DNA from: a virus
Lineage: Duplodnaviria > Caudoviricetes
Virus record (IMG/VR): IMGVR_UViG_3300042519_000334
Location: 1 to 61,636 of that record
Length of the DNA: 61,636 nucleotides
Strand: one strand, 5' to 3'
Shown here: positions 1,243-56,051 of the stretch, one piece after another
Position numbering within the stretch: the first letter of the stretch is position 1
Layout: the number at the start of each line of letters is the position of its first letter
The notes under the pieces: model-generated
Told to the model about the DNA's origin: nothing
What the model saw: only the letters and a program-made list of their open reading frames with translations
Databases searched by the model: none
Made by a program: the position numbers and the translations under genes

Positions 1243-1448
1243 AGACACCAATGCAAATGATTGAGGATAAACTCAACGAATCAGATGGACGAGAGTTCTA
1301 TCGTTGGGCTGTAATCAATCTACCTATGCTCATAAAGAGAGAGAAGATGTTTATCAATGTAGAGAAGAATCGATTATCAAAGAATAACGATGAGAAAGTC
1401 GTAATCAGCGGTAATTATTCTAGAACAATTTGCATTTCTGATAAATAA
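1239..1448 (+). CDS. Hypothetical protein (MKTP.Q N-terminus shared with 59681)
   Basis: ATGA-coupled ORF. Confidence 0.55.
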   Translation: MKTPMQMIEDKLNESDGREFYRWAVINLPMLIKREKMFINVEKNRLSKNNDEKVVISGNYSRTICISDK

Positions 1449-1460
1449 TTTATATTTTTG
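1428..1460 (+). promoter_or_regulatory. Bacteroidota-type housekeeping promoter
   Basis: TTTG at 1429-1432 and TATTTTTG at 1453-1460 (TAnnTTTG -7 element), upstream of the recombination genes. Confidence 0.75.
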
Positions 1461-2020: not shown

Positions 2021-2811
2021 TGGAAATCCAGCTTCTTGACGGAAGTACTTGGCATCGTAGCGACTTGCTCTCTGCGATGGCCGATGACGACTTCTACTAT
2101 GGGTACTTGGGGAAGGCAGTTCTGTCTTCCTCGAGTCTCAAGAAGATTAACGACTCACCACGTGAGTACGCACGCTACTTGAAGTATGGAGAGGAAGGCG
2201 ACACGACGGCTCTTGTCGCAGGCAACCTTATACATACTCTCTTGTTAGAGCCACACCTCCAAGACAACTTCATACCTGTGGAATGTTCCAATAAGAACAC
2301 GAACATATGGAAACAAGCAGTTGCCGATAACGAGGGTACGGGCAAGAAGTTGCTTCTTCAGAAGGACTTCGATAATTGCCACTATGTAGTTGATGCACTG
2401 CTCAAGAACAAGATTGTTCAGGGTGCACTCATCGACGCTGATTACGAACTTCCTGAGATTGGTCTACTCTACGGCGTGCCGTTTCGAGCTAAGGCTGATA
2501 TCAAGAAGAGGGGTCAAAAGTATATCTATGACCTTAAGACAACATCAAACATCGATGACTTTTACCACAGCGCACGCAAGTATGGTTATGCCGCACAAGC
2601 ATACATCTACTGCACTCTGTTTGATGTTCCGTTTGAGAACTTTAAGTTTATCGTTGTAGATAAGAATAAGAAAGACATCGGCGTTTTTTCCGTGTCGGAG
2701 ACTTTCTTTATGTTAGGCAAGCGGTTGGTAGAGCAAGGTGTATCTGATTACATCAAGTTCTTTATTGACGGTGAGGACCTAAACCAATATGTGATTTACG
2801 GAGAACTTTAA
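2020..2811 (+). CDS. PD-(D/E)XK exonuclease (RecE/ExoVIII-like, DUF3799)
   Basis: LSSSSLK, G.LIH..LLEP, KAD...YDLKTT and Y..QA.IY motifs. Confidence 0.85.
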   Translation: MEIQLLDGSTWHRSDLLSAMADDDFYYGYLGKAVLSSSSLKKINDSPREYARYLKYGEEGDTTALVAGNLIHTLLLEPHLQDNFIPVECSNKNTNIWKQAVADNEGTGKKLLLQKDFDNCHYVVDALLKNKIVQGALIDADYELPEIGLLYGVPFRAKADIKKRGQKYIYDLKTTSNIDDFYHSARKYGYAAQAYIYCTLFDVPFENFKFIVVDKNKKDIGVFSVSETFFMLGKRLVEQGVSDYIKFFIDGEDLNQYVIYGEL

Positions 2812-3681: not shown

Positions 3682-3880
3682 CGAAGAAGAAGCCCTAGAT
3701 ATCATTAGGGTTCTTACTGATGACTTTGGGGTTAGTAAGACTGCTCTTTCCAAAGGGTTACATATAAGTAGAGTGTCTCTAAATAATGTAATCAATGGGA
3801 AGACAATCGTAACCAAGAAGTTCATCATCCGACTGAACAACCACATTGACAAACTCAAAACAGCAATTAACTATGAATGA
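3665..3880 (+). CDS. XRE/Cro-type HTH DNA-binding protein
   Basis: SKTALSKGLHISRVSLNNVING helix-turn-helix pattern. Confidence 0.7.
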   Translation: MPRINNEEEALDIIRVLTDDFGVSKTALSKGLHISRVSLNNVINGKTIVTKKFIIRLNNHIDKLKTAINYE

Positions 3881-4301
3881 ATTTATCTACTGGGACGACC
3901 CGGGCGATAGCCAAGATGTCGTTGATAATCAAACAGAGAAGAACAACCTTGTAGCTGTCTACGGTACACTCAAGATTGGTAAAGGCAACCATAGCCTTCT
4001 AAGTAGCTCCATCTATATGGGGACTGCTCGAACCAAAGACCTAATGCGTCTATGTGTCGTATCTCTCCCATACTTAGTTAGAGGTGAGTCTGAGGAAGGC
4101 AAGAATGTACTTGTTGAACTGTACTATGTTGACGACAGCACTTTAGCATCTCTTGACCGACTTGAGGGACATCCTGTTCACTACAAGCGTGAGATGATGA
4201 AGTTTACACCTGAAGAGTCAATCTTCTCTAACGAAGTAGAGGCTTGGGTGTATATGGTTGACGAACGCTACGATAATAAAAAATACTACGATGAATTCTA
4301 G
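3873..4301 (+). CDS. Gamma-glutamylcyclotransferase (AIG2-like)
   Basis: VAVYGTLK.G..NH, LDRLEGHP..Y.R and AWVY motifs. Confidence 0.9.
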   Translation: MNEFIYWDDPGDSQDVVDNQTEKNNLVAVYGTLKIGKGNHSLLSSSIYMGTARTKDLMRLCVVSLPYLVRGESEEGKNVLVELYYVDDSTLASLDRLEGHPVHYKREMMKFTPEESIFSNEVEAWVYMVDERYDNKKYYDEF

Positions 4302-4692
4302 AGACAAGATTATTCAAGAGACAACAAGGGTAGAGAATCTACTACTTCGTAAGAACGCATCATACGGAGACAGCGCACTGAAGCCTGCCAACGTATTTGC
4401 TAAAGGCTCCGCAGTGGAGAACCTTTGCTCACGTATCGACGATAAGTTGATGCGTATCAAAAACAAGGGAATCAACGTAAACACTACGGATACGATTGAT
4501 GACCTAATCGGCTATCTAATTTTATTAAATATCGCACTTAAAGATGCTGAACCCACAAATTCTACAGAGACAGGTAACGATGTTCAGGAGCGTGACAACT
4601 CCGACGGAACCGTTCCTAGTGACAGTCGAGAAAGTTATTGGGCGAATCCAGTCCCCCCCGCCAAGTACACTTGGCCTGATATCGAAGATTAG
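4291..4692 (+). CDS. DUF1599 / nucleotide-modification-associated domain 1 protein
   Basis: KN.SYGDS, RIDDKL.RI and DT..DLIGYLIL motifs. Confidence 0.8.
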   Translation: MNSRDKIIQETTRVENLLLRKNASYGDSALKPANVFAKGSAVENLCSRIDDKLMRIKNKGINVNTTDTIDDLIGYLILLNIALKDAEPTNSTETGNDVQERDNSDGTVPSDSRESYWANPVPPAKYTWPDIED

Positions 4693-10965: not shown

Positions 10966-11039
10966 GTCCCCATAGCTCAACTGGACAGAGCAACGCACTT
11001 CTAATGCGTAGGTTGCAGGTTCGACTCCTGCTGGGGATA
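10966..11039 (+). tRNA. tRNA-Arg (anticodon TCT)
   Basis: Acceptor GTCCCCA/TGGGGAT, D arm GCTC..GAGC, anticodon arm ACGCA-CTTCTAA-TGCGT, T arm GCAGG-TTCGACT-CCTGC; CCA not encoded. Confidence 0.95.
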
Positions 11040-11970: not shown

Positions 11971-14900
11971 TTACTTCTTTCTTAATCTGTCGTACTCGTA
12001 CTTGAACTTAGCAGAGAAACTGTATCCAGACTCTTGATAGATTTGTTTTCTAAGGTCTAGTAGCTCATCATCGCTCATATCTCCGTAAAGCAAGTAAACT
12101 TTTTTCGCTCTAGCTTCTTCATCTTTTGAGTATATAATCTCATTAGTATTTTGAGACGCTGAACGCTTCTTAGCAGCAGTTAAGAACGAATCTCTATAGT
12201 ACATTGCATCAACAACATTAGACTTCTTAACTTCTTCCACTTGAAGCTTAGCCTTATTAAGGATAGCTTTTTTATCAGCTTCAGTTTCAGCTTTAATGTA
12301 ATCCAGACCAAGTTCCTGAGCTGAGTCTCTAATTTTCATACGCTTACTTCCTGACTCTTGGTCGATACGCATAAGGTCTTCCTTTTGATTGTATACCTTC
12401 CAGTCTGGGTTTGTCTCACCCCATAGGGATTTACTTACCGACATTCCATTTTTTCCAAGAGCAGCTACGACTTTAGATGCGGCTGACTTGCTTTCTGCGG
12501 CAGACATATCATTGTCGAGTGGCACAACTGATGTAATAATATCTAGCAGTCCGTATGTAGCACCAACAACTAACGACGAGCTTGGGCTAGTTATAACTTT
12601 CTCAACTGACGCCTTAAGTCGAGCAGGTGATACACCGCTCTTCTCTCCAGTGGTTAACTCTTGAAGCTCCCCAGTAACCTTTCCGATAACTTTGTAGAAT
12701 CTCTCTACATTGGGGTCATTGATGCCCTCGTCCATAGGTAGAATCTCGTTGAAGTCCATAGTGACAGCACGGTCCCTGAATAGGTCGTAGTTGGTTAGAT
12801 AGGTCAGCGCCATACTGATAGATGGGACTGATGATGTAATCTCAGACAGTGATGCTCCAGTAGGCATAGCACTCTTAACAGAGTTTAACGCATAACCAAG
12901 CAAGTCATCAGACGGAGAATACTTATCGTTACCCGTAATAGATGCAAGAGCATAACCATTCATAATGTCCATCAGTGCGAAGAATGGGACCATCTGTTGT
13001 GGCTTAGCAATCTTTATGTATGCCCTTCTCTCTTTGCCCTTCTCGTCAGTGTACTTGGTTGGAAGCATAATAATGAAGTAGCGAAGCTTAACTTCATCTG
13101 GAATTTCATCCATATCGTCATCACCTACGAGAGCATTAACCATAGCAAGTATCATCATACCAGCCTGAGCCTGCAAGAACTTAGAAGCAAACTTTTTTGG
13201 GTTGGCTCTAATGTAGTCAGCAGATACTCTGAAGCCTTGGAAGGCAGAGTTGATGTATGGCTTGAATACCTCAAGTCCCTTAGTAAGGTTACCTCCTTGA
13301 GCGAAGTCAATGATAGAACGAGCTTTGTTTACTGCCTTAGCCTTGATTAGTTCTAGGTCGTCACCAGTAGGCTCCTGACCGTACTTGCTTTCAAACTCAG
13401 CTGCTGCGTCGTCTCTGAATTTCTTGTATACAGCTACACGGAATCCAACTTCGGAAATCTCACCTATACTAGACAGTCTGTCTACGAACTTATCCAGCTT
13501 GCCCTTGTCTGCTCGGAGTGAACCCGGACGGCCATCAGTTGATAGGAAGTCCATACCGCCACCCATCTCCATATATTCTTGGAAGTACTTGTCGTCAGCC
13601 TTAAACGACTTAACTCCCTTAAGGAAATCCCTCATAAGGTTGTACGAACCAAAGTAGATATTCTGATTATCGTAAACATCAGTGAAGAACAAGATGTGTC
13701 CGAAGTCACGAGGTAAGTTCCTCACAATGAACAATGGGTTGGCACGTGTAGCCAATAGCTTCAACAGTGCAGAACCAGTGATGTAACTGATTGCCTTAGT
13801 TGTCTTAGGTCCAAACTCTAAGAGTCTGTTGGCTCCATCCCACTCACGCTTAAGGTCAGTACGAAGCTGGAACTTGGACTGCGCGCCATTCTCGTAGAAA
13901 TATACAGTCTCAAAACCAGTTGACGCATCACCGCTAGGGTCTTGCGGTTTCACCCACTCCCTATTTGTGTTATCTAGGGCAGCCTTAAACAACGCCTTAT
14001 TTGCTCGGTTCTTTAGGATTCTAGACGATGCTGAGGCAGCGTATGCAGCAAGCAAGAATCTAGAGTCCATAATCGTATCGTCAGCACTACCTTCTCTGAT
14101 GGCCTTAACTTGGTCTCCACTCAATCCGTAATCACGTACTGATACATCGTTATCACCGAAGTCAAATGCGTGGTTCAGGAACACACGTGGAGAGTAGTCA
14201 AAGTCTTTAATCTTGTCGTACAACTCTTTAGTGATGAGACCATTCTTGTATACGTCGTCAAGGATGCTTCTAAACTCAGCGAAGTATGCATCAGCACGCT
14301 TGTTAAGCTCCTCGAAGTTTGCAACTTCTCTAGATAGTCTGCTAAGTTCTGCAATCGCTCCCTCTTTGTCGATGTATGAATTGTTCTTTCTATCCTGAGT
14401 GTGGCGAGGACGATTCGTTTCAGCAAGCAAACCTTGAAGTCTCTCGAATTCAGCAGTTGCTTTCTCGAGTTCAGCCTTAAGCTTATTCTTCTTCTCTACG
14501 TTTACGTTGCTAGCTAGCGATGCCACTCTAGATGAGGCATAGTCCATATCGACCTTAGCCTGAGCCAACTGCTCGGTAATACTAGCTCTCCTGTCGTCAA
14601 ACGACTGGTCAACCTCGATTACACGACGAAGGAATACAATCTTATTGAGAGCCTTAACGGCATCCTCAGATAGTCCTCCGAAAATCTTTCTATCGGCTTT
14701 GTTTACAGAATACTTTGCACGAGCACTTGCTCCAGCCTTGTTCACAAGAAAATCATAGGCTCCGTCAACTCTTGCGTTCAGAAGCTCACGCTTGATGTTA
14801 GACTGCCTATCAAACAGTGCATTGCGAAGCTTTCTTACATTGAATACGCTCTTGTACCAAGGCTCTTCGTAAACCCTGTCCTCGAACTGCTTGTAGATGT

Positions 14901-17900
14901 TGTCAATGTTTGCGGCAGCAACTCTCTTGGGTCCCATACTGCCGTCCAAGAAGTCATTGTATACTTCTCTAGCTGAGTAGTCAGATACTCCGAGCTGAGA
15001 CATTAGGTTAACAAACTCATCCTCAGAGATGCGAGGCACGAGTCTTCCATTAGTATAATCAGATACACTCTTTAGGTAATCGTACTCGTTGCCTCCAGCT
15101 TGCAGGCGGCTCATACCTTTCTGCATAGCCTCTGGAGTAATCGTGAATCCGAAGTTGCGAAGAGTCTCTACTACCTTTTTGAATGTTTCTGGACTCCAAG
15201 CGTTCAAGTAGTGAATCTTGTGGACTCTATCTACCTTATATCCATCGTCAGTAAACAGTTTTGCATCCTCGCTACCTTTCTTCTTGGTGTGGTCAGCGAA
15301 TCGAACCTCAAATGTTCTAGCAATCTCCTTGTCTGCGTCTCCACCTTTAAACTTTAAGTATCTACCAGAGCTTGCGTCTGAGTCATTCTTTACTACATCA
15401 GTGTACTCGAGCAAGAAGCGCATATTCTTCTTTGGCTCGTTCTGTAGCGAGTTATAGATTGCGTTAAACGCATTGAAGGAGTTAAGGTTAGACTTGTCTA
15501 CAAGCTGATATTTCTCCTTAAGCTTGGCTTTGTTGCTTATTTTTTCTTCGGCTTCGGAAAGAAGTCGATGTAGGTTTTCCCAAGATTTTCCTTTGTAGCG
15601 TTGCGAATTCCGTGCTTCGCCAATAATTCGTCCATAGTCAGACTCTTGGATGAATCTGACGTCGGCTTGTTGGGTTGTGAGTTCTGCATCTTTAGTTAGA
15701 TTGTTTTCTTTTACGAAGTTAAAGAACTTGCTTATGTTTTCCAAGTATTCATCAAGAGAAAGTCCCCAAGATTCTATTTGAGTATTCCAAGCGAATGATA
15801 TTCTGTTCTTTCCTGACTCGATGGTGTACGAGAATCCAGCGTTGAGACCCATCTCGTCAATCTTGTCGAGTAGTGACTTCTGAGCCTTAGTCTCAAGGTT
15901 GATTTCAGTGAGAAGACCAGTTCCTTTCTCGTCTACTCTTGAGATGAGTGCTGAGTTTTGAATCTCTTTAGCCAATGCCCCGTTAAGTGCCGCAATCAGT
16001 TCAGCATCATCCATAGAGATAGAAGCTTCAATTCGACTTGAAGTCTCTACGGTAACTCTACCTGTTTCGAAGTTTCTGTATCCACCGATGTTATCGTACT
16101 GCTTGATTGTCTCAGCGAGGTTAGGGTCGAAAGCATCTACGATTCTAGTCTGCTCTTTCTTTAGGGCCACGTATGCTTCATCACTCTTAAATGCGGCCTT
16201 AGCTTCATCTACGTTTGTAATCTTAGTCTCAACATATGGCGCGGCACTGATTGAGAACGCCCTAAGGCTGTTAGCAACCTTAGCTTTACGTCTAACCTCA
16301 GTAATGGCTTGAGCTTGCTCTTCTTTGGTTCTAGTACTCTTTTTAGACTTAGCAGAACTCACATACATAGAGCCAGCAACAGATGTGGCAACAGACGTAG
16401 GGCTACCCGAGGCAGAAACAAACTGTTGCTCTGAAAATATCTTATCTACGTAATATTTACCATCAAGTAAGAATGGGTCCTCACCGTGGAACTTACTGTT
16501 GAACTGCGGGTGTACGAATTTACCATCCTTACTCTTAGACAGGTATTCTTGTGCGCCCATATACGGGTCATTCACAAAGAACCCACTCAATGAGTACCCA
16601 CTGTCTCCGTCACCCTTAAGGTTGTCAACGATATTCTTATCTAAGTACTCGCTAAAGAACGCCTTATTATTGAATCCAGCTCTAAGTAGTGCATTTCTAG
16701 CAGCTGCGCCCGGACCAGATACCGCCTGTACTCCCGGGATGAAATTCTCAAGGAAATCACGACGAGTCTTGAAGTCCATCTTATCGTTTGAAGAAACCAA
16801 GCGCTGTAGCGCATCGTGTCCTTCTTTAGTCGTGAAGTCACTGCTTTGAACAGCTTCAGAAAGCATTCTAATCTTTTTGATTGTAGCTTGTCTGATGGCC
16901 TTGTTTTTCTCGTAATCGCTTTTGCCTTCCTTGCTGGCGATGTTCTTCTCAAGCTTGGCCACTTCCTTCTCAACGAAGTCGTTAAGCGAGCTCTTGAATT
17001 CTGACTGAGAAATATCTCCAGACTCAATAGCCTTAGAGATTCCATCAGCAAAGAACTTAGCCCCGTATGCGTTACCAAAGGCAGCACCCGGAGATTGAAT
17101 CATAACGAATACAGATACTGGCTTTCCAACGTGTTCTGGATTAGAAGCATCTCGCTCTTCGGCTACACGCTTGATAAGGTCACCGAGCTCAGTAACCTTG
17201 TTATCCGCCGATGCAGCGAAGCCAATTTTATCGTCAATGTTCTGCTTGATAAATGAGTATCCAAAACCTCCGTAAACATCTTGACCGTCAGCCGCGTGAC
17301 GGATGGCTGTTCCGTCTGAGTTGATGATTACGAATGCACCGCCTGAACGCTCAAGGACAGAGTCCATAGATAGTTTGTCTTTAACATCGACAACCTCTAC
17401 GTTCTTAGGCATTTCATCATTGAACGAGATATCTACAGGCGTGAACTGCTGCTTCTTATTTGTGGGTCCTCCATCGTATACGCCTCGTGCTATTACAGAG
17501 CCGAGCTCTAGGTCTTCCACGTTAACTGCTACACCACCGCCAAGCGAGTTAGAGATTGAACGCATAGCATCAATCAGTTGGGCGCTAGTGGGGGCTACAT
17601 TGAACTTAGTGCCGAGAAACTTATTGATTATCTCAAGGAACTTAGTGGCGAGCGAGCGCTTAACCTCAATGTCAATCTGATTTGACGCAATGAGTGATGA
17701 CAGCTCAGTAACAAACTCATCGTCTAGTTCTGCCTCAGAAGCACCCATAGCTTGATACTTCTCAATGAAGTTACCCATATACTGGGTAAGCGCCTTGTCT
17801 TTGAGTATAGCACTACGAAGCGTCTTAGCTAACTTCTTGGTCCCTTCTACTCCGAGTATATCTGGTGCTACTTCGTGGACTGCTTCGTGGTAAACAGTGT

Positions 17901-20064
17901 TTGAAGCGATGGCTGGTACGAACAAGTGAATCTCGCTAATGCCACCTTCTTCTTTGACGTGCATACCTCTAGCAAGCACGTTGTCTCCAGATGCCTTCTT
18001 AAATGACTCAGCGTTAGTATGGGATACTACACGTACATCTCTACCAGACTTGGACAGTGAATCAATCACGTTCTGGATAGACTGAACGCCAGACAGAACG
18101 TCCTGCTTGGTTGTACCAGATAATGCGAAGAAGTCGTCTGCCTTTTCGTTTACGTAGTTAGACAGCCAGTCAATAGCATTGCCAGCAGTTGATTGGTTAA
18201 TCTTGAGGCTACGAACCTTAGGACCTAACTCCTGCTCAACTGCTTGCGTTACTTCTTGAGGTGTTTGAAGAACTCCACCTGCCTGAGTCGTTTGAGCGCC
18301 TGCTCCTTCGATAGGTTGGGCTTGCTGAGTGGCTTGCCCTGCTTGGATAGGACTTGATACTTGTTGTTGCGCTTGGCTATCATACTTCTGTTCGATTTTG
18401 GCTTTCTCTGCTAGAGCATTCTTAATGTCCGAAACTAACTGAGCCTTAGCCTCAGAGCTAGTGAGCTTACTGTAGTTCTTCATCCCATTAGAGATGGTCT
18501 GGTCAAGTTTTATTGTTTTCGTAAGGTCCTCTGCCGAGTAGTTAGAATAGAATGCCTCTGCATCCTGCTGCATTTTCTTTTCTTTTTTCCTAAACTCTTC
18601 CAGCCTCGGCTCTAGCAACTTCTTTTCTTCTACAGATACACTAGGGTCATTTTTGATATTTTGGATTTCTTGAATCTTATTACGAACCTCAACTCTGTCG
18701 CCAAATATTGGGGTACGAAGCATTGCAGATGGACCTTTGGTTGCTACATATTGAAGACCGCCGACTCCACCACCCATAGCCGCACCAACGAATACAGACT
18801 CAGCAATATTCATATAGTCAACCTTGTCTCCAGCAAGTACTTTCTGTAATACTTCTTGAGTTACACCAACAATACCTTCTTCAAGTCCCTCCTCTAAAGG
18901 CTGTCTAGCTATCTGTGGTAATTTACCGAACAGCATATCACCAAACTCTTTCTTTGGCATTTTAGCCACGTCTTCAGCTGTGCCAAAGATTGCACGAACT
19001 GCTTTAATATCAGATGCAAACAGTTTCTCAGTTGCATACTCAGCAAGACCTACTCCTGTAGCGTATATTACCTTCTCTATGTCATTATACCTGTCGTCAT
19101 TTACTACCTCGTTAAACGCGCTACCTGAAGAAATAACACCAAGTGCGGCGGGGCCAGCTATAACTCCAGCAGCTAGATTCATACTCTGGTCAAGCATATC
19201 CATACCAAGCAGAGTGAGGTCCCCCTCAAGAGCCATACCTAATGAGCCCTTCTCTATCTGTTCATCTGTGTATCCAAGATTAAATCTAGATGCATACGTT
19301 TGTATCGATACAAGTTTAGCTGCATCTGTACTTGCTCTCTGAAAAATGTTTCCTTCCAAGAACTTATCTGCATCAGCGCCGACTAAGTAGTATGGAACTC
19401 TAGCTGCCATATCTACAAATCCAGTAACTCCCGAAATAAGAGAGTTGAATCCTCTACTTAGGAAACTACTTTCTTCAGCGATTTTCTTCTGCTCTTTAGC
19501 AAACAGTTCGATTTGAGACTTCATATCTGCATCTATAGAAGACACAGCAGCTGGGTTTATTGAACCGTTTTCATTGAATAGAGACGTGGGAGCGAGATTA
19601 TCCTCATCCAACTCCTTATATGCTACGTATGTTTTTTCAAGCTCTGGACGTATCTTTTCAAAGTCTTCAGCTGTTTTGACTGATGACAACTTCATTGCCA
19701 ATTCAGTACCAGCTTCTGCTCTTTGAGTTGTAAGCCAGTCTCGTCTTACGTTTTTAGTTTCCTCCTTTGGGTCTTGAGCTCCCTGAAAACCAACACCTTG
19801 AGCCTGACGGAATCCAGTAGGGCCCCAAGTTACTTGCTGACCAAGTTGATTAGTTTTCTGAGAATCCGAAGAAGAAGGCCCTTGAGCCTGCGTGGATTGT
19901 GATTCCGAACCGGAAGGTCTTTTTTTTTTACTGCCGTAGAAGTTAGCCGCTAACGCAATATCGTCGTCGGCGTAACCATTCTTTTTCATTGCGGCAGAGA
20001 CCTCGTCAATTGACTTCCCACTGGCGTAGGCCTTCTCAAGAATTGCCTTAAGTTCTTCGTTCAT
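11971..20064 (-). CDS. Giant polyvalent, probably ejected virion protein (2697 aa)
   Basis: Zincin-like YHEAVHE; C-terminal LPD38-like region (IIDFAQGG...PYINSAFQG); lies after the tail genes. Confidence 0.7.
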   Translation of the reverse strand: MNEELKAILEKAYASGKSIDEVSAAMKKNGYADDDIALAANFYGSKKKRPSGSESQSTQAQGPSSSDSQKTNQLGQQVTWGPTGFRQAQGVGFQGAQDPKEETKNVRRDWLTTQRAEAGTELAMKLSSVKTAEDFEKIRPELEKTYVAYKELDEDNLAPTSLFNENGSINPAAVSSIDADMKSQIELFAKEQKKIAEESSFLSRGFNSLISGVTGFVDMAARVPYYLVGADADKFLEGNIFQRASTDAAKLVSIQTYASRFNLGYTDEQIEKGSLGMALEGDLTLLGMDMLDQSMNLAAGVIAGPAALGVISSGSAFNEVVNDDRYNDIEKVIYATGVGLAEYATEKLFASDIKAVRAIFGTAEDVAKMPKKEFGDMLFGKLPQIARQPLEEGLEEGIVGVTQEVLQKVLAGDKVDYMNIAESVFVGAAMGGGVGGLQYVATKGPSAMLRTPIFGDRVEVRNKIQEIQNIKNDPSVSVEEKKLLEPRLEEFRKKEKKMQQDAEAFYSNYSAEDLTKTIKLDQTISNGMKNYSKLTSSEAKAQLVSDIKNALAEKAKIEQKYDSQAQQQVSSPIQAGQATQQAQPIEGAGAQTTQAGGVLQTPQEVTQAVEQELGPKVRSLKINQSTAGNAIDWLSNYVNEKADDFFALSGTTKQDVLSGVQSIQNVIDSLSKSGRDVRVVSHTNAESFKKASGDNVLARGMHVKEEGGISEIHLFVPAIASNTVYHEAVHEVAPDILGVEGTKKLAKTLRSAILKDKALTQYMGNFIEKYQAMGASEAELDDEFVTELSSLIASNQIDIEVKRSLATKFLEIINKFLGTKFNVAPTSAQLIDAMRSISNSLGGGVAVNVEDLELGSVIARGVYDGGPTNKKQQFTPVDISFNDEMPKNVEVVDVKDKLSMDSVLERSGGAFVIINSDGTAIRHAADGQDVYGGFGYSFIKQNIDDKIGFAASADNKVTELGDLIKRVAEERDASNPEHVGKPVSVFVMIQSPGAAFGNAYGAKFFADGISKAIESGDISQSEFKSSLNDFVEKEVAKLEKNIASKEGKSDYEKNKAIRQATIKKIRMLSEAVQSSDFTTKEGHDALQRLVSSNDKMDFKTRRDFLENFIPGVQAVSGPGAAARNALLRAGFNNKAFFSEYLDKNIVDNLKGDGDSGYSLSGFFVNDPYMGAQEYLSKSKDGKFVHPQFNSKFHGEDPFLLDGKYYVDKIFSEQQFVSASGSPTSVATSVAGSMYVSSAKSKKSTRTKEEQAQAITEVRRKAKVANSLRAFSISAAPYVETKITNVDEAKAAFKSDEAYVALKKEQTRIVDAFDPNLAETIKQYDNIGGYRNFETGRVTVETSSRIEASISMDDAELIAALNGALAKEIQNSALISRVDEKGTGLLTEINLETKAQKSLLDKIDEMGLNAGFSYTIESGKNRISFAWNTQIESWGLSLDEYLENISKFFNFVKENNLTKDAELTTQQADVRFIQESDYGRIIGEARNSQRYKGKSWENLHRLLSEAEEKISNKAKLKEKYQLVDKSNLNSFNAFNAIYNSLQNEPKKNMRFLLEYTDVVKNDSDASSGRYLKFKGGDADKEIARTFEVRFADHTKKKGSEDAKLFTDDGYKVDRVHKIHYLNAWSPETFKKVVETLRNFGFTITPEAMQKGMSRLQAGGNEYDYLKSVSDYTNGRLVPRISEDEFVNLMSQLGVSDYSAREVYNDFLDGSMGPKRVAAANIDNIYKQFEDRVYEEPWYKSVFNVRKLRNALFDRQSNIKRELLNARVDGAYDFLVNKAGASARAKYSVNKADRKIFGGLSEDAVKALNKIVFLRRVIEVDQSFDDRRASITEQLAQAKVDMDYASSRVASLASNVNVEKKNKLKAELEKATAEFERLQGLLAETNRPRHTQDRKNNSYIDKEGAIAELSRLSREVANFEELNKRADAYFAEFRSILDDVYKNGLITKELYDKIKDFDYSPRVFLNHAFDFGDNDVSVRDYGLSGDQVKAIREGSADDTIMDSRFLLAAYAASASSRILKNRANKALFKAALDNTNREWVKPQDPSGDASTGFETVYFYENGAQSKFQLRTDLKREWDGANRLLEFGPKTTKAISYITGSALLKLLATRANPLFIVRNLPRDFGHILFFTDVYDNQNIYFGSYNLMRDFLKGVKSFKADDKYFQEYMEMGGGMDFLSTDGRPGSLRADKGKLDKFVDRLSSIGEISEVGFRVAVYKKFRDDAAAEFESKYGQEPTGDDLELIKAKAVNKARSIIDFAQGGNLTKGLEVFKPYINSAFQGFRVSADYIRANPKKFASKFLQAQAGMMILAMVNALVGDDDMDEIPDEVKLRYFIIMLPTKYTDEKGKERRAYIKIAKPQQMVPFFALMDIMNGYALASITGNDKYSPSDDLLGYALNSVKSAMPTGASLSEITSSVPSISMALTYLTNYDLFRDRAVTMDFNEILPMDEGINDPNVERFYKVIGKVTGELQELTTGEKSGVSPARLKASVEKVITSPSSSLVVGATYGLLDIITSVVPLDNDMSAAESKSAASKVVAALGKNGMSVSKSLWGETNPDWKVYNQKEDLMRIDQESGSKRMKIRDSAQELGLDYIKAETEADKKAILNKAKLQVEEVKKSNVVDAMYYRDSFLTAAKKRSASQNTNEIIYSKDEEARAKKVYLLYGDMSDDELLDLRKQIYQESGYSFSAKFKYEYDRLRKK

Positions 20065-31658: not shown

Positions 31659-31697
31659 GCTAAAGTTTGCATATGTGAAAACTTATTCGTATATTTG
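31659..31697 (+). promoter_or_regulatory. Consensus promoter for a counter-oriented gene
   Basis: TTTG at 31666-69 and TATATTTG at 31690-97; 16-bp GCTAAAGTTTGCATAT is identical to 53175-53190. Confidence 0.75.
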
Positions 31698-51343: not shown

Positions 51344-52012
51344 TTACAGTCCCTTAAGCATTTGAATCATCTCGGGCTGTGGGAAGATATCAATCTTATC
51401 CTTACGTACTGAGTTGTGCGTATATACTCCTGCGACACCATTCAGTGCATTCATAGATACATCCCACATATCCTCCTCACGATAGTCCAGCGGGATATCA
51501 TAAATCTCATTCCAGTACTTCAAGAGATTCTCAACACTGCGAATCTGCTCATCGGTGTATCTGTGGAAGTGGATATGCTTCTTGTACGGGGAATCAAGGG
51601 TACATACATCCTCCTTGGCCACCTCACGATTGACGTAGTTGTAGTACTTACCGCCACGCTCCTCTAGCTGTCCCCAAGCACAAATCTCAATACCGATAGA
51701 AATCTTATCGAGCACCTTGTGTGGGACACCGTACCCCTTGAAGATTTCAGCCTTAGCACCTAAGTGGTAGGCCCAGTACTTAGATGGGAATCCCTGCACG
51801 ATGCGTCCATCTCCTTCCTTAGCTCCCTTTCCGCTGATACAAACACACGTTGCGATACGACCTCTTGAGTCGGTATCCCACTGCTTGAATGTAGATACCC
51901 CACTTGAGTTACCTGCGGTGTGGTGTAGGTAAATCTGCTTCTTCGGAGCAGCCTCCTTGATGTACTCGGTAGGTGAAAACTCTACCTGCAAGATGTCCTT
52001 GAGAAATTCCAT
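51344..52012 (-). CDS. N-acetylmuramoyl-L-alanine amidase (endolysin)
   Basis: IYLHHTAG, WAYH.G, SIGIEI and THNSVR.DK.D Amidase_2 motifs. Confidence 0.9.
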   Translation of the reverse strand: MEFLKDILQVEFSPTEYIKEAAPKKQIYLHHTAGNSSGVSTFKQWDTDSRGRIATCVCISGKGAKEGDGRIVQGFPSKYWAYHLGAKAEIFKGYGVPHKVLDKISIGIEICAWGQLEERGGKYYNYVNREVAKEDVCTLDSPYKKHIHFHRYTDEQIRSVENLLKYWNEIYDIPLDYREEDMWDVSMNALNGVAGVYTHNSVRKDKIDIFPQPEMIQMLKGL

Positions 52013-52016
52013 AGAA

Positions 52017-52024
52017 CAAAGATA
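52017..52024 (-). promoter_or_regulatory. Late promoter -7 element, one of at least 12 minus-strand TAnnTTTG sites
   Basis: CAAAnnTA on the plus strand just upstream of minus-strand genes at 11957, 20087, 22278, 28095, 31636, 32411, 33669, 34442, 41518, 43441, 45914 and 52017. Confidence 0.8.
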
Positions 52025-52096
52025 ATGATTGTATACGATAGGTGATTATGTCGGTACTATGTATTACACACTATTGATTATGTCATTTTTTTTGTG

Positions 52097-52270
52097 TAAC
52101 TTTGCCCCTGTAGTGCAAGGGCACGCAGACGAACAATAGTATACGCAACGTAACATAGACGTAACTACGGACCGATGCATAGGCGGACAGCCCAAAAGCG
52201 ACAGTCCGCCTCTGCAAAAATAGGGCGACAGCCACTACGCAAAGCACTTGAATACAGGAGGCGTGTGTCC
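52097..52270 (+). ncRNA. Candidate promoter-driven small structured RNA
   Basis: TAACTTTG at 52097-52104 with no credible ORF downstream; stems TGCA-AGGCGGAC/GTCCGCCT-TGCA and GTAGTG/CACTAC. Confidence 0.45.
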
Positions 52271-52874
52271 AAGCAGTTCCTATCCACAAGAATACTCATT
52301 TAACTGCTCGTATACAGTATTCTACTGTTGTTTTCACGTTTTAGAAACACATATAGTAGTAGGTGGGTGATGGATACTTTTTTAATTCGTACGAGTTCTA
52401 GGTACCGTGGGGAGAATTATACAAGAGCGACGCTGACGAACCAACTCCGAAACCGAATCGCAAACCCAACCCCCTCGTAATCAGCGCGTTACGTTCAAAC
52501 TTTTTAGCGTTTTGTCTATAGGTAGGCGCTCAAGTAGAGTATCTATTCTATGTCGGCTAGGCGTTCGTTTACTGAACGTATTCAGGTCGTTTGCTGTAGA
52601 AAAAGGTAAACTTTTCGTGTACTGAACGTATGCTTTTTTTCGTGGGTGTGGTCGGTCGTAGACCTGCATCAATCCCCTCTCTACTTTTCCCCACTTTTCA
52701 CCACTCGTTCCCTTCATCTTTCTTAGTACGTTTCGCTGTATGTTTCGTGTATGTTTATTTAGTATACTATAGTAGACAGGGCCTCAGTTAACGATTACGG
52801 CAGGAATTATACTAATAGTTTAAACAGCGGAAAAAGTATGCTTTTGCCCGTATTTGGTACATATTGGGTCGGGT

Positions 52875-53126
52875 TAGGCCGTTGGTGTTCAGTCAGTTAG
52901 GTGCTGAATTACGTACATACGATTTCTTAAATGACGCTGATTATCAGGTAGTTACGTTAACTCGTTGTGTTTCAGTATGTTGTAACTTGCTGAGTTTTAG
53001 CCTGTTAGTAACTAATTGATTCTCAGCGGTTTACTAACTCGTTGATTATCAGGTAGTATTATTTAGAACGATTCTAAATTTCATCTCGAAGCAACTTTTT
53101 TTTTGGTGCTGATTATCAAGCAGTTA
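52875..53126. repeat. Array of seven degenerate 25-bp palindromes TAAC-N4-TGA-N3-TCA-N4-GTTA
   Basis: Copies start at 52875, 52930, 52958, 52983, 53009, 53035 and 53102. Confidence 0.8.
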
Positions 53127-53174
53127 GCCCTATATATTCCTATAAGGGGCGTGGGCTCCTCGAAATTTCTCTTG

Positions 53175-53212
53175 GCTAAAGTTTGCATATTTGTAAAGCC
53201 GCAGTATATTTG
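53175..53212 (+). promoter_or_regulatory. Major early promoter
   Basis: TTTG at 53182-85 and TATATTTG at 53205-12; first consensus promoter in front of the early gene block. Confidence 0.8.
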
Positions 53213-53216
53213 TGGA

Positions 53217-53835
53217 GTCGAAAGGCCAACGGGCCACCACCACTCGACGAAGTTTTTTGAAATATCAACCGAAACGCGAACTCAGAGTCGGAGACAAGAG
53301 CAGAGCGCGGTAGGCAGGAAAGTCCCAAGTGACGATAGACGAACGGATGTTGGCGAAAACGCCTCTCCAATTTCTGAAACCCACCTTGTGAACCTTGTAC
53401 GATTGAGTCAGTGAGCCACGGCCACTTTCTCTCGGGCGTTAAGGAGCGGAGTAGCAGGTCAGGTCAGAATAGTAGAGTGATGTAAGCAGAAAGCGTAGCG
53501 CAAGTAAGCCAACACAGGTCGATTGAAAGTAGCGAGGGCAGGTAGACAAGACAAGCAAAGCCAAGTACGGCGGCCGTAAGAAACACGAGTCCAAACCTAA
53601 TGAAGCAAAGCGCCGTGGCGCGGAGCGACAAGCAGTGCGGAGGAGTCCAATGAACGCCACCTGAACACCTGAGTGAATCGAGTCAAACAAAGCCGAGAAC
53701 AACATCAAGCGAAAGACAGGATATGCGGTGCGTAAACAGCGCCGCCAAAGGATAGCAGATGTGGTCGAACTAACAGCATATGCGGTCAACAGGCTCACGC
53801 CACAGGCCGCCAAAAAAGTTCACCTGTTCAAGGCA
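53217..53835 (+). ncRNA. Candidate large structured non-coding RNA
   Basis: Follows the promoter; no credible plus-strand ORF; purine-rich and T-poor; several 6-8 bp long-range complementarities. Confidence 0.55.
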
Positions 53836-53839
53836 CACT

Positions 53840-53891
53840 ACTGCCGCTTGGAGTGCACATCGTGCATAGGGTTCGAGTCCCTACGGCAGTC
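53840..53891 (+). ncRNA. Minimal tRNA-like element (acceptor stem plus T arm, no D stem or anticodon loop)
   Basis: ACTGCCG/CGGCAGT 7 bp, TAGGG-TTCGAGT-CCCTA T arm contiguous with the acceptor 3' strand, TGCAC/GTGCA mini-hairpin, TGG linker. Confidence 0.7.
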
Positions 53892-53923
53892 AAACTTTAA
53901 CCACTAATCTAAAATCAATCACT

Positions 53924-54133
53924 ATGAAAATTAAAGAAATCGCCATTTTATTTCTTCAATTCTTATTCGTAACCACCATAATCCTACTTCCATTTGTTAT
54001 TGTCTTTTCGTTGGCAGACGAAGACCCGCGTGAGAGAATAGAAATAGAAGATGGAACGAGAGTAATTACAATGGACGGAGACACAATCGAAGTTCACGCA
54101 TACAAATTTTTGTACGCATACAAGGTTAACTGA
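53924..54133 (+). CDS. Small membrane protein
   Basis: N-terminal TM helix; its stop TGA lies in the hammerhead core. Confidence 0.7.
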   Translation: MKIKEIAILFLQFLFVTTIILLPFVIVFSLADEDPRERIEIEDGTRVITMDGDTIEVHAYKFLYAYKVN

Positions 54134-54174
54134 TGAGCGCTTTAATAGCCGAAACGTCGTGAGACGTCTTAACC
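54124..54174 (+). ncRNA. Type I hammerhead ribozyme (HHR1)
   Basis: GGTTAA-CTGATGA-stem II-GAAA-CGTC GTGA GACG-TC-TTAACC; predicted GUC cleavage after 54168. Confidence 0.9.
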
Positions 54175-54198
54175 AAAAACAATTTAATTCTTTTCGTT

Positions 54199-55722
54199 AT
54201 GAGAGTTACCAATATCGTATCAGGCCGTCAGATTGAAATCCGCCGCTCTTACTACAACGAGCAGTTCAACTTCTACTTCGGTATCAACAACGACTTCTTT
54301 GTGTACACCTACGCCAACAACGAAGGTGAACTTAACCGCACTCGTTTCCCTCGCGCACTCAACGCCGCTGAGTGGGGCATCGACCTTCGTACGGGCACTC
54401 ACTCGTCAGCAACATTCGAACTGCGCGGTCAACAAATTCTGCGAGGTCGCTACTTCCGTAGCGAGCAGGTATCTGAGCAACGCATCTTAGGTATTCCGCA
54501 CGTTACGCTAACTAATGATGAGAAGGCCAACTTCGCTGTTCGTGTGGCAGAGTCAAGCGGACACAACTCAAACGTGTTTGTATCACTGCTCATCGGGGAA
54601 GTACTGCATACAACTGACCTTGTCGTTCGTAATTACTCAACTACTTCGGCGAAGTTCTACGATGCGAACGGAGTGTCTCACGTGCTAAATTTCCAAGACA
54701 ACGAGTACGGCCACGTTATGTCTGCAATTCGTGAAGGTCGCACTGAGTACTTAACAGGTCGCGACCTGTTAGGCAATACGTCAATCTTCGCCAACGCTGA
54801 GATTCAGGAGCGCTTCGGTGCAGCCCCTGAACTTAGCGGTTACCACGGCCCATCACGCAACACCGAAATCTTCAACGATTCATCAGTTGAGTGGTTCGTA
54901 GGTTTCGAGGTCGAGAAGGAGGACCTGAATGTTCGCAACCGCTGCGCTCGTGCTAACTGCAACTTGGGTGACGGATGGATTGCAGAACGCGACGGCTCAC
55001 TCGATTCATCGACAGGTGTCGAGGTCGTGTCACCTGTACTCAACCTGTTCGATACGAAGACATTGTTCGAGCAGTTCGAGAAGTACGATTGGGTTATGAA
55101 CGCAGAGTACTCACGCCGCTGTGGTGGCCACATCACCATCAGCCGTCGTGGAATTTCAGCCGATGACCTCGTCGACAAGTTGGCTCCGTTCGTGCCTATG
55201 CTTTTCTCGCTATACGAAGGCCGCCTGTCCAATCAGTACAGCGGAGTTCAGAGCAAGGACGAAATCAAGCGAGGTTCACGCCGCGCCATCAACAACTGCT
55301 CACGTGCATACAATAACCGCAAGGAGGCAGTTGAGATTCGCATCTTCAGCGCAGTATCTACGCTCGAGTCAATTAAGTTCCGCACGAAGTTGGTTCAGTG
55401 GATATGCGCTCACATCGACAAGGGCACGTTCACCACGTTCACTCAGGTGGCCGATGCTATGTTCAACGACAAGAAGTTGAACAAGTTACTTCGTCAGCAG
55501 TACAGCGCTGAGAAGTTAGCACGTAAGCAGGCACTCACCTACGTGTTCGGCGGATGTCTCGAAGGTCAGTCACCGAGCGAGTTTCTCACCGATGCTGACA
55601 ACTACGACCGCACCATCGAGCGTATGAAGCGAGCCTACGACAGCGTACAGGGCTACGTTCGCCGCGAGGTCGAGAGCAAGTTCGGTACTTACTCAGTCAA
55701 TAAGGCCGCAGGTAAGTTGTAA
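54199..55722 (+). CDS. Putative amidoligase (COOH-NH2 ligase, Amidoligase_2-like)
   Basis: GFEVE, ERDGSL, GVEVVSP, CGGHI and VEIRIF motifs. Confidence 0.8.
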   Translation: MRVTNIVSGRQIEIRRSYYNEQFNFYFGINNDFFVYTYANNEGELNRTRFPRALNAAEWGIDLRTGTHSSATFELRGQQILRGRYFRSEQVSEQRILGIPHVTLTNDEKANFAVRVAESSGHNSNVFVSLLIGEVLHTTDLVVRNYSTTSAKFYDANGVSHVLNFQDNEYGHVMSAIREGRTEYLTGRDLLGNTSIFANAEIQERFGAAPELSGYHGPSRNTEIFNDSSVEWFVGFEVEKEDLNVRNRCARANCNLGDGWIAERDGSLDSSTGVEVVSPVLNLFDTKTLFEQFEKYDWVMNAEYSRRCGGHITISRRGISADDLVDKLAPFVPMLFSLYEGRLSNQYSGVQSKDEIKRGSRRAINNCSRAYNNRKEAVEIRIFSAVSTLESIKFRTKLVQWICAHIDKGTFTTFTQVADAMFNDKKLNKLLRQQYSAEKLARKQALTYVFGGCLEGQSPSEFLTDADNYDRTIERMKRAYDSVQGYVRREVESKFGTYSVNKAAGKL

Positions 55723-55805: not shown

Positions 55806-56006
55806 ATGAAACACGAACTAAACGAAATGATGCGAGCCTACGAAAACTACCTGAGTAAGGTATCGAGGTTCATCGAAGCAACCGACGAAACCGAACGCTA
55901 CAAGTTGATTGCGTTCGATATAATCGAGCGGCAAAGTATCGACCTCGAAGAAAACTTGGAGGCCGCATACGAAACGCTAACGCAATATCTAGAAGAACGA
56001 GGTTAA
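55806..56006 (+). CDS. Small acidic helical protein
   Basis: ATG after an A-rich leader; its stop TAA lies in HHR2 stem I. Confidence 0.7.
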   Translation: MKHELNEMMRAYENYLSKVSRFIEATDETERYKLIAFDIIERQSIDLEENLEAAYETLTQYLEERG

Positions 56007-56051
56007 CTGACGATGGCTTGAGTAGCCGAAACGCTGTGAAGCGTCTTAACC
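56001..56051 (+). ncRNA. Type I hammerhead ribozyme (HHR2)
   Basis: GGTTAA-CTGACGA-T-GGCT TGAGT AGCC-GAAA-CGCT GTGA AGCG-TC-TTAACC; predicted GUC cleavage after 56045. Confidence 0.92.

Follow-up and report, generated by a model that had tools for sequence, protein, structure and literature searches.

A large structured non-coding RNA ahead of a tRNA-like element in the early region of a freshwater phage, likely outside the described RNA classes

Introduction

Positions 53217-53839 of a freshwater phage genome very probably encode a real structured RNA, and this RNA likely falls outside the classes described so far. An earlier note on this DNA had put forward the idea that an early promoter first yields a large, structured RNA of some 620 nt that codes for no protein, and comparison with relatives has borne this out, as the stretch is conserved, non-coding and supported by covariation. 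Taken jointly, the observations lead us to favour, on balance, a stable early non-coding RNA of about 620 nt, of a class that is not in Rfam, which would be released by RNase P and would act in trans as a scaffold or decoy. All coordinates refer to the window, i.e., the whole stretch of 61,636 nucleotides that was analyzed, and the features are collected in Table 1.

Table 1. Positions of the RNA, its domains and the adjoining elements in the window.
Feature	Positions	Strand	Description
Early promoter, Bacteroidota type	53182-53212	+	-33 TTTG at 53182-53185; -7 box TATATTTG at 53205-53212
Large non-coding RNA	53217-53839	+	About 623 nt; 5' end predicted from the promoter, 3' end predicted from an RNase P cut at the tRNA-like element
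5'-terminal stem-loop	53217-53248	+	GUCGA/UCGAC around GGCC-AACG-GGCC; predicted fold
5' core domain	53318-53542	+	61 pairs in 11 helices; long irregular nested fold; internal loops highly conserved
Loop-loop partner 1	53415-53422	+	GCCACGGC, apical hairpin loop of the 5' domain, tetraloop CACG
3' domain	53556-53817	+	39 pairs; support weaker than for the 5' domain
3' hairpin Ha	53560-53571	+	
3' hairpins Hc/Hb	53589-53641	+	Apical GCGCCGUGGCGC at 53610-53621
Loop-loop partner 2	53612-53619	+	GCCGUGGC, apical loop of hairpin Hb, tetraloop CGUG
3' hairpin Hd	53725-53745	+	
3' hairpin He	53782-53810	+	Inner hairpin at 53792-53801
tRNA-like element	53840-53891	+	7-bp acceptor stem, UGGAG spacer, 5-bp hairpin (3-nt loop), 5-bp T stem with loop UUCGAGU, discriminator C

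The Phage and Its Probable Host

The window represents the IMG/VR record IMGVR_UViG_3300042519_000334 in full and carries an exact 127-base repeat at each end. Its gene content is that of a tailed phage (portal, large terminase, tail fibres, primase/helicase and ribonucleotide reductase). The large terminase has a length of 708 aa and is at most 48% identical to those of deposited phages, and its named relatives are mostly found in phages of Flavobacterium (68 of 119 records) and Cellulophaga (15 of 119). In MW202828.1, whose terminase is 48% identical, the gene order around the terminase differs from that of the window. Based on these terminase relatives and on the TTTG/TAnnTTTG promoter pattern described below, we infer that the host belongs to the Bacteroidota. 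Late genes run leftward from 52012 and early genes rightward from 53924, and the 1.9-kb gap between these divergent operons (52013-53923) contains no credible open reading frame (ORF). The sole tRNA called in the window by ARAGORN and the Rfam tRNA model is a tRNA-Arg at 10966. A 2697-aa protein encoded at 11971-20064 (-) belongs to no PHROGs family and shows only an LPD38 domain in Pfam.

Promoter and Predicted Transcription Start

The promoter ahead of the RNA exhibits the spacing TTTG-N19-TAnnTTTG. A consensus promoter had been placed here by the earlier note; the site does exist, is conserved in the five clades of homologues and is also picked up by a sigma-70-like scan, but it is of the Bacteroidota -33/-7 type and not a classic sigma-70 promoter. 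The pattern TTTG-N17-21-TAnnTTTG was found four times in the window versus 0.98 expected occurrences, a count that 3 of 100 shuffles reached, and three of the four matches begin with TTTGCAT. According to excerpts of a study on Flavobacterium psychrophilum, the sigma-A box TAnnTTTG is situated at -12 to -5 in this species (PMC9723704). Transcription is therefore predicted to start at about 53217, so that the RNA would be the first product of the early promoter, with a start and length that agree with the coordinates proposed earlier.

The other matches to the promoter pattern are located at 1429-1460 (+), 31666-31697 (+) and 52215-52243 (-), the last of which is directed leftward, towards the amidase gene at 52012. 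Just upstream of the early promoter, a 19-nt word with the palindromic core CTGATTATCAG is present in three copies (52936-52954, 53041-53059 and 53108-53126), the third of which is near-invariant across relatives. These repeats look like a putative operator for a dimeric DNA-binding protein.

Composition and Coding Tests

The description of the stretch as T-poor and purine-rich proved accurate: positions 53217-53835 contain 33.0% A, 24.2% C, 28.3% G and 14.5% T, versus 27.7% T in the whole window, and the AT skew rises up to +0.57. The same is true for the lack of a credible ORF, as only frames of 33 aa and 59 aa are found on the + strand and a frame of 124 aa on the - strand. All three + frames of the stretch are interrupted by several stop codons, with all three kinds present. 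Among the 14 homologues introduced below, open frames occur in differing frames and places and none of them is conserved. Variable sites are distributed over the three codon phases as 75/81/80, i.e., with no periodicity; for the neighboring 507-aa gene, the corresponding counts in four comparisons are 21/19/60, 53/37/116, 47/26/105 and 35/17/63, with an excess at the third position. In addition, the clades of the RNA differ from one another by indels of 1 and 2 nt. The search for a protein-coding signature, which the earlier note had named as grounds for refutation, found none, and the stretch 53217-53839 is non-coding.

The window sequence by itself carries little sign of a fold. Complementary 6-mers number 40 versus 31.8 +/- 7.4 in shuffled sequences (45 of 300 shuffles reach 40), longer complementary words are at chance level (seven 7-mers versus 7.2 shuffled and one 8-mer versus 1.6), and the minimum free energy of the single sequence is not below that of shuffles (z = +1.31 for the + strand and +1.65 for the - strand). 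As neither the complementary words nor the folding energy go beyond chance, the case must rest on the comparison of relatives.

Homologues and Distribution

When IMG/VR was scanned with a word of 21 bases taken from the T arm and acceptor of the tRNA-like element, 11 loci were identified, all 11 of which are homologous and alignable over 52050-53930 at 74-97%. An 18-base word yielded 17 loci, 12 of them homologous; L015-L018 and L020 were discarded as chance matches inside coding DNA. A pattern scan of JGI metagenomes added nine stretches, all nine homologous. After the removal of duplicates, the IMG/VR and JGI contigs provided 14 distinct full-length sequences that fall into five clades, with RNA identities of 76-98% among clades A-D and of about 55% for clade E. 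A blastn search of INPHARED with 52000-54200 gave no match among deposited phages. A scan of GTDB, with one genome per prokaryote species, returned four pattern stretches and no homologue, the best stretch being a 12.5-bit partial match within DNA of 72% G+C.

Relatives of the terminase in IMG/VR number more than 597, and the best 80 of these were kept for the RNA search. An nhmmer search of these 80 loci (A1; 16-row alignment) matched only L021 and L024-L026, and a model of the 5' core domain 53318-53542 (R1) had no match over 76 of the loci. Thus, among the best 80 of the more than 597 relatives, the RNA is carried only by loci whose terminase is at least 78% identical, and those at 74% identity or less are without it. 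On whole records, R1 matched all four close relatives and none of 20 more distant records (two complete genomes among them), bar a single match of 11 bits over 44 nt. Gaps without ORFs in relatives were considered as an indicator of the RNA and found to be uninformative, since chance frames of at least 70 aa mask the RNA even in L021.

L093, one of the two complete genomes among the distant records, has a terminase of 66% identity. At 3971-4576 (-), in the slot that the RNA occupies elsewhere, it carries an ORF of 182 aa whose start is hydrophobic and whose body is charged, together with a tRNA-like element. This element comes directly after the ORF and is likewise built from acceptor, hairpin and T arm, with the acceptor AACAUAG/CUAUGUU and the T arm UGGGG-UUCGAUU-CCCCA (R2 E = 0.54), and a tblastn comparison of the 182-aa protein with the 14 RNAs revealed no likeness (best E 0.36). 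From the restriction of R1 matches to close relatives, together with the arrangement in L093, it follows that the RNA is lineage-specific cargo of an accessory kind, carried in a slot that tRNA-like punctuation marks out. The RNA lies directly behind the promoter in all clades, and it stays constant while the downstream gene varies among them.

Covariation in the 5' Half

RNAalifold predicted 132 pairs for the 14 sequences, of which 36 show a compensatory change, mostly in the 5' half. The inner stem of the 5'-terminal hairpin covaries, with GGCC/GGCC being replaced by GGUC/GACC in L104 and by GUUC/GAAC in clade E; the whole stem-loop is missing from clade D. In the 5' core domain, 93.7% of 730 cells are paired in the plain MAFFT alignment versus 26.2-41.1% when slid by 1-3 columns, and two-sided changes occur at 29 of the 61 pairs versus 2-8 in the slid controls; none of 500 shuffles reached the observed values. 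Covariation among homologues, which the earlier note had called for, is therefore present, its base being 14 sequences in five clades only. Several pairs of the core occur as three or four pair types, which argues for several independent events. Many pairs are G-U (for example, columns 82:126 are G-U in 10 of 12 rows and columns 7:225 U-G in 9 of 12 rows) and would be A-C on the opposite strand, which identifies the + strand as the RNA strand.

As a negative control, the conserved non-coding block 52380-52560 gave eight predicted pairs, none of them compensatory. Within it, positions 52399-52520 are conserved even in clade E (75-77%) without RNA covariation and probably represent a DNA-level signal.

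The 3' Domain

In the 3' domain, 78.8% of cells are paired in the plain MAFFT alignment versus 36-45% when slid, with 14 compensatory pairs versus 5-10. The corresponding values are 82.5% and 21 versus 6-10 in alignment A6, which was fitted to the model, is thus biased towards it and contains one row that was judged spurious, an R3 match at L096:13540-13655 (22.8 bits, 116 nt). When the clades were folded one by one, Ha, Hc/Hb, Hd and He recurred from differing sequences, clade A being without a good helix Hc. Hd and He share the same initial 14-base word, which looks like an internal duplication. A helix closing the molecule between the leader and the tail (U tract 53251-53257 with A tract 53811-53817) was rejected, as its energies are no better than those of shuffles in eight of nine representatives and its positions are unconserved.

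Proposed Pairings and a Loop-Loop Contact

The complementary words quoted in the earlier note are all present at their coordinates, with GCGGTC/GGCCGC at 53782/53805, and the eight pairings proposed from them were scored on A2, an alignment of 14 sequences. A genuine helix is formed by TGTTGGC/GCCAACA, with 92.9% of cells paired and compensatory changes at six of seven pairs. Of the other proposals, six did not survive. For GTGAAC/GTTCAC, 89.3% of cells are paired without any compensatory change, and the pairing competes with well-supported local helices; GGCGTT/AACGCC, 90.5% paired, likewise lacks compensatory changes, has one pair broken in 6 of the 14 sequences and faces well-supported local rivals. 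Only 78.6% of cells are paired for TCTCGG/CCGAGA, 67-69% for the CAGGT/ACCTG pairings, 55.1% for GTGAGCC/GGCTCAC and 46.4% for TCGATT/AATCGA, and all of these were rejected. The pseudoknot that had been envisaged in the loop of GCGGTC/GGCCGC is given up as well, since the presumed partner itself forms a local hairpin that covaries (GGC/GCC, GGG/CCC, GUUG/CAAC, GGACGC/GCGUCC and AAACGC/GCGUUU).

The remaining pairing, GCCACGGC/GCCGTGGC, was retained. It is paired in 91.1% of cells, and the rows scored as unpaired are two rows of clade E that carry the same two 8-mers with a shift by one column. In L009, an A>G change in the word at 53415-53422 is matched by a U>C change in its partner at 53612-53619, giving one compensatory change from A-U to G-C, and the other 13 sequences keep both 8-mers. 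As both words are situated at the tips of hairpins, the pairing would constitute a loop-loop contact, either within one molecule or between molecules. A real CACG/CGUG contact is supported by the alignment, through the one double change in L009.

Contigs in RNA Libraries

Four RNA-library runs from four studies were compared over 51500-55500; contigs of this kind cannot show ends, strand or level, nor are they proof of transcription. Runs X1, X3 and X5 leave parts of the interval without contig cover, which carries no weight as evidence. In three metatranscriptome studies, the only contigs over this interval fall wholly inside the RNA, at an identity of at least 95%, and span 53231-53780, 53230-53697, and 53230-53451 together with 53502-53687. 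Their common beginning at 53230/53231 without a loose end, 13-14 nt past the predicted start, is a weak hint of an RNA end. The fourth run (X7) represents a relative and contains contigs corresponding to 52921-53750 and to 53722-53908 joined to 54197. As the latter extends across the tRNA-like element and on into the following gene, it shows that there are molecules left uncut or read through, or else DNA. None of the contigs in the RNA libraries ends at 53839.

The tRNA-Like Element and the 3' End

One base past the predicted 3' end of the RNA begins a tRNA-like element that the earlier note had overlooked. It has no anticodon loop, no D stem and no encoded CCA. Counted in 7 of the 14 sequences, with one or two per clade, its pairing amounts to 99.0% versus 30-52% when slid, with 6 of 14 pairs compensatory versus 0-1. 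The element of clade E has another sequence and the same acceptor and T stems, and folding of the element yields z = -2.29. The only Rfam hit in the region is to mascRNA-menRNA (RF01684) with 19.6 bits and E 0.91 in the window, and with 30.9 bits and E 0.018 in L011/L012, in each case below the gathering score of 42.5. ARAGORN did not call the element in the window. A true tRNA was rejected for 53840-53891, given the middle hairpin loop of 3 nt, the missing D stem and the silence of both ARAGORN and the Rfam tRNA model. Likewise, no tmRNA was identified by ARAGORN in the window or in 25 loci, or by Rfam.

Most likely, it is this element that sets where the RNA ends on its 3' side. RNase P recognizes the stack of acceptor and T arm next to a spacer that bears GG. 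The element offers this target, and a cut before A53840 is accordingly the likeliest route to the 3' end; that the RNA is released by RNase P is a proposal we hold slightly more probable than its opposite. In L096, another relative, two similar elements at 2310-2700 (-) end in GGACUG...CAGUCC. One of the two has the T arm UGUGGG-UUCGAGU-CCCACA (R2 E = 0.45), and both resemble additional punctuation of the tRNA-like kind.

Ribozyme Motifs and the Early Genes

Hammerhead-type motifs are located between the early genes at 54124-54174 and 56001-56051 (+), about 15-25 nt before start codons. Their layout comprises GGUUAA, CUGA(U/C)GA, stem II, GAAA, stem III and GUC followed by UUAACC, and the 13 distinct copies found in the window and its relatives show covariation in stems II and III. 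In both motifs of the window, every core letter of the hammerhead consensus is present; an Rfam scan at E up to 5 did not call them. In the clade E locus L024, Pistol ribozymes were identified at 2193-2267 and 3732-3795 (-) with 68.1 and 51.6 bits (gathering score 34.5), downstream of the RNA and on the same strand. Judged from these motifs, the early transcript seems to be cut into pieces, which would fit a release of the large RNA.

The first large early protein (54199-55722, +) has 507 aa, belongs to no Pfam or PHROGs family and shares 92% identity with its counterparts in two relatives. Its gene comes directly after the tRNA-like element in clades B and D. A 69-aa ORF at 53924-54133 and the first hammerhead-type motif are absent from the close relatives L002 and L003 and from the metatranscriptome contig that joins 53908 to 54197. 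A scan for terminators found no terminator-like site between the RNA and the first early ORF, so that the RNA is formally also a leader of the early genes.

Discussion

The searches for known families were uniformly negative for the large RNA. A cmscan of 4227 Rfam families, as proposed in the earlier note, gave nothing on it at gathering scores. Relaxing the limit to E up to 10 for 52000-54200, and to E up to 5 for the loci of L024, L005, L011 and L012, brought no match to it either; RNase P RNA, group I and II introns, 6S RNA, pRNA and the other families of Rfam 15 are all without a match over it. Membership in GOLLD or ROOL, one of two options raised before, is therefore not upheld, as neither Rfam model matches, and the other option, a new class, gains ground. 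Short words that resemble RNase P RNA were noticed and attributed to chance, since no Rfam model matches. Word searches of the open-access literature found no such RNA in print.

Several other explanations have to be weighed. The stretch could be a cis-acting leader of the early operon that controls elongation or antitermination, mRNA stability or timing and has no role once cut off. This is unlikely in our judgement, even if the RNA lies right behind the promoter in all clades, no terminator-like site separates it from the first early ORF and a contig from the RNA library of a relative links 53722-53908 with the next gene. Known leader devices are far smaller than an RNA of about 620 nt with at least 100 supported pairs and long invariant loops, the tRNA-like element and the ribozyme motifs indicate a physical separation from the mRNAs, the downstream gene changes between clades while the RNA stays, and the contigs of three RNA libraries contain the RNA alone. 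A transcript related to a replication origin, either a primer or an activator whose structure would be incidental, might be suspected from the 1.9-kb gap between divergent operons with its direct repeats and its conserved DNA block without RNA structure; transcription is, however, directed away from the repeats, and compensatory changes spread over about 100 pairs as well as a tRNA-like processing signal are unexpected for a primer, which makes such a transcript very improbable.

Even less can be said for a divergent GOLLD or ROOL or another described large RNA (RNase P RNA, tmRNA, an intron or the phi29 pRNA), for the empty cmscan and the absence of a tmRNA in ARAGORN outweigh the similar size, the phage origin and the nearby tRNA-like element. 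Finally, a protein-coding or decayed gene, read in another code or with frameshifts, is scarcely credible. Frame 2 of the RNA sequence gives basic peptide-like stretches, and L093 places its 182-aa A-rich ORF between the early promoter region and the tRNA-like element; yet the L093 protein has no likeness to the 14 RNAs in tblastn, open frames are unconserved, and stops in every frame, even codon phases and small indels all speak against translation.

The favoured reading, a large non-coding RNA set free from the early transcript, would proceed as follows. Early transcription by host RNA polymerase would begin at the Bacteroidota-type promoter, with the RNA forming the first part of the transcript. 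Host RNase P would then cut at 53839/53840 in the fashion of a pre-tRNA, thereby creating a defined 3' end and parting the RNA from the early mRNAs, which in turn would be severed by the hammerhead-type motifs. The freed RNA would act in trans early in infection as an accessory factor. A role as scaffold or decoy for a partner from the host or the phage is tentatively suggested by three features: the RNA is made early, its distribution is accessory, and its long loops are invariant.

GOLLD and ROOL are RNAs of phages and prophages that often occur near tRNAs, according to excerpts of a recent preprint (10.1101/2024.12.08.627333). The window RNA resembles them in that it is phage-encoded, non-coding, several hundred nucleotides long, intricately folded in a conserved manner and associated with a tRNA-like structure. 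In contrast, it has no Rfam match, likely belongs to a phage of Bacteroidota, is the first product of an early promoter and is succeeded not by tRNA genes but by a tRNA-like element that does not decode. In the same preprint, as far as its excerpts go, loop-loop contacts of GOLLD and ROOL that had been found by covariation proved to be intermolecular (10.1101/2024.12.08.627333). In the window RNA, a loop-loop contact was detected by covariation too, and by analogy, self-assembly of the kind seen in GOLLD and ROOL may be open to it through the covarying complementary loops. It is a speculative and rather improbable extension of this that the RNA is a third, unrelated self-assembling large phage RNA: once released by RNase P at the tRNA-like element in the manner of MALAT1, its copies would join by intermolecular CACG/CGUG loops and build a multimer or cage made of RNA only, which would act during the first minutes after infection of a Bacteroidota host.

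The pRNA of phi29 is a phage RNA from an early promoter in which two loops, complementary over four bases, join molecules hand in hand. The early promoter and the complementary four-base loops are thus shared with the window RNA. Unlike the latter, pRNA is some 170 nt long and works in a packaging motor that has no classical large terminase, whereas the window phage encodes a portal and a large terminase of 708 aa, and its RNA has no Rfam match.

A further likeness concerns MALAT1/MEN-beta and mascRNA, where a long non-coding RNA is also followed by a tRNA-like fold with acceptor and T arm and without a working anticodon arm. The MALAT1/mascRNA system is eukaryotic and nuclear, with a 3' end made by RNase P, while the cut in the window is predicted; no triple-helix element was seen upstream in the window, and mascRNA scores below gathering. 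Any such likeness is convergent. In tRNA punctuation and t-elements, where tRNA-like structures serve as processing signals in transcripts of organelles and phages, a tRNA-shaped element similarly stands between two functional units of one transcript, as is also the case in L093 after a protein gene. The window element differs from these in parting a large structured RNA from mRNAs and in coexisting with hammerhead-type and Pistol motifs.

To our knowledge, bacterial and phage RNAs that exceed 500 nt and have intricate conserved folds number no more than a handful. Each of the earlier large RNAs opened new biology or structural work, the cages of GOLLD and ROOL being an example, and a new class would enlarge the short list of large phage RNAs. 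The present RNA offers several advantages for study: a defined promoter, a likely defined 3' end, a strongly supported core of 225 nt, a testable loop-loop contact and natural "knock-outs" in the form of relatives without it. It would also provide a case from a bacterial virus in which the end of a long non-coding RNA is formed via a tRNA look-alike. Together with an early operon that is seemingly cut by small ribozymes, the processing of early transcripts in phages of Bacteroidota is thereby made directly testable.
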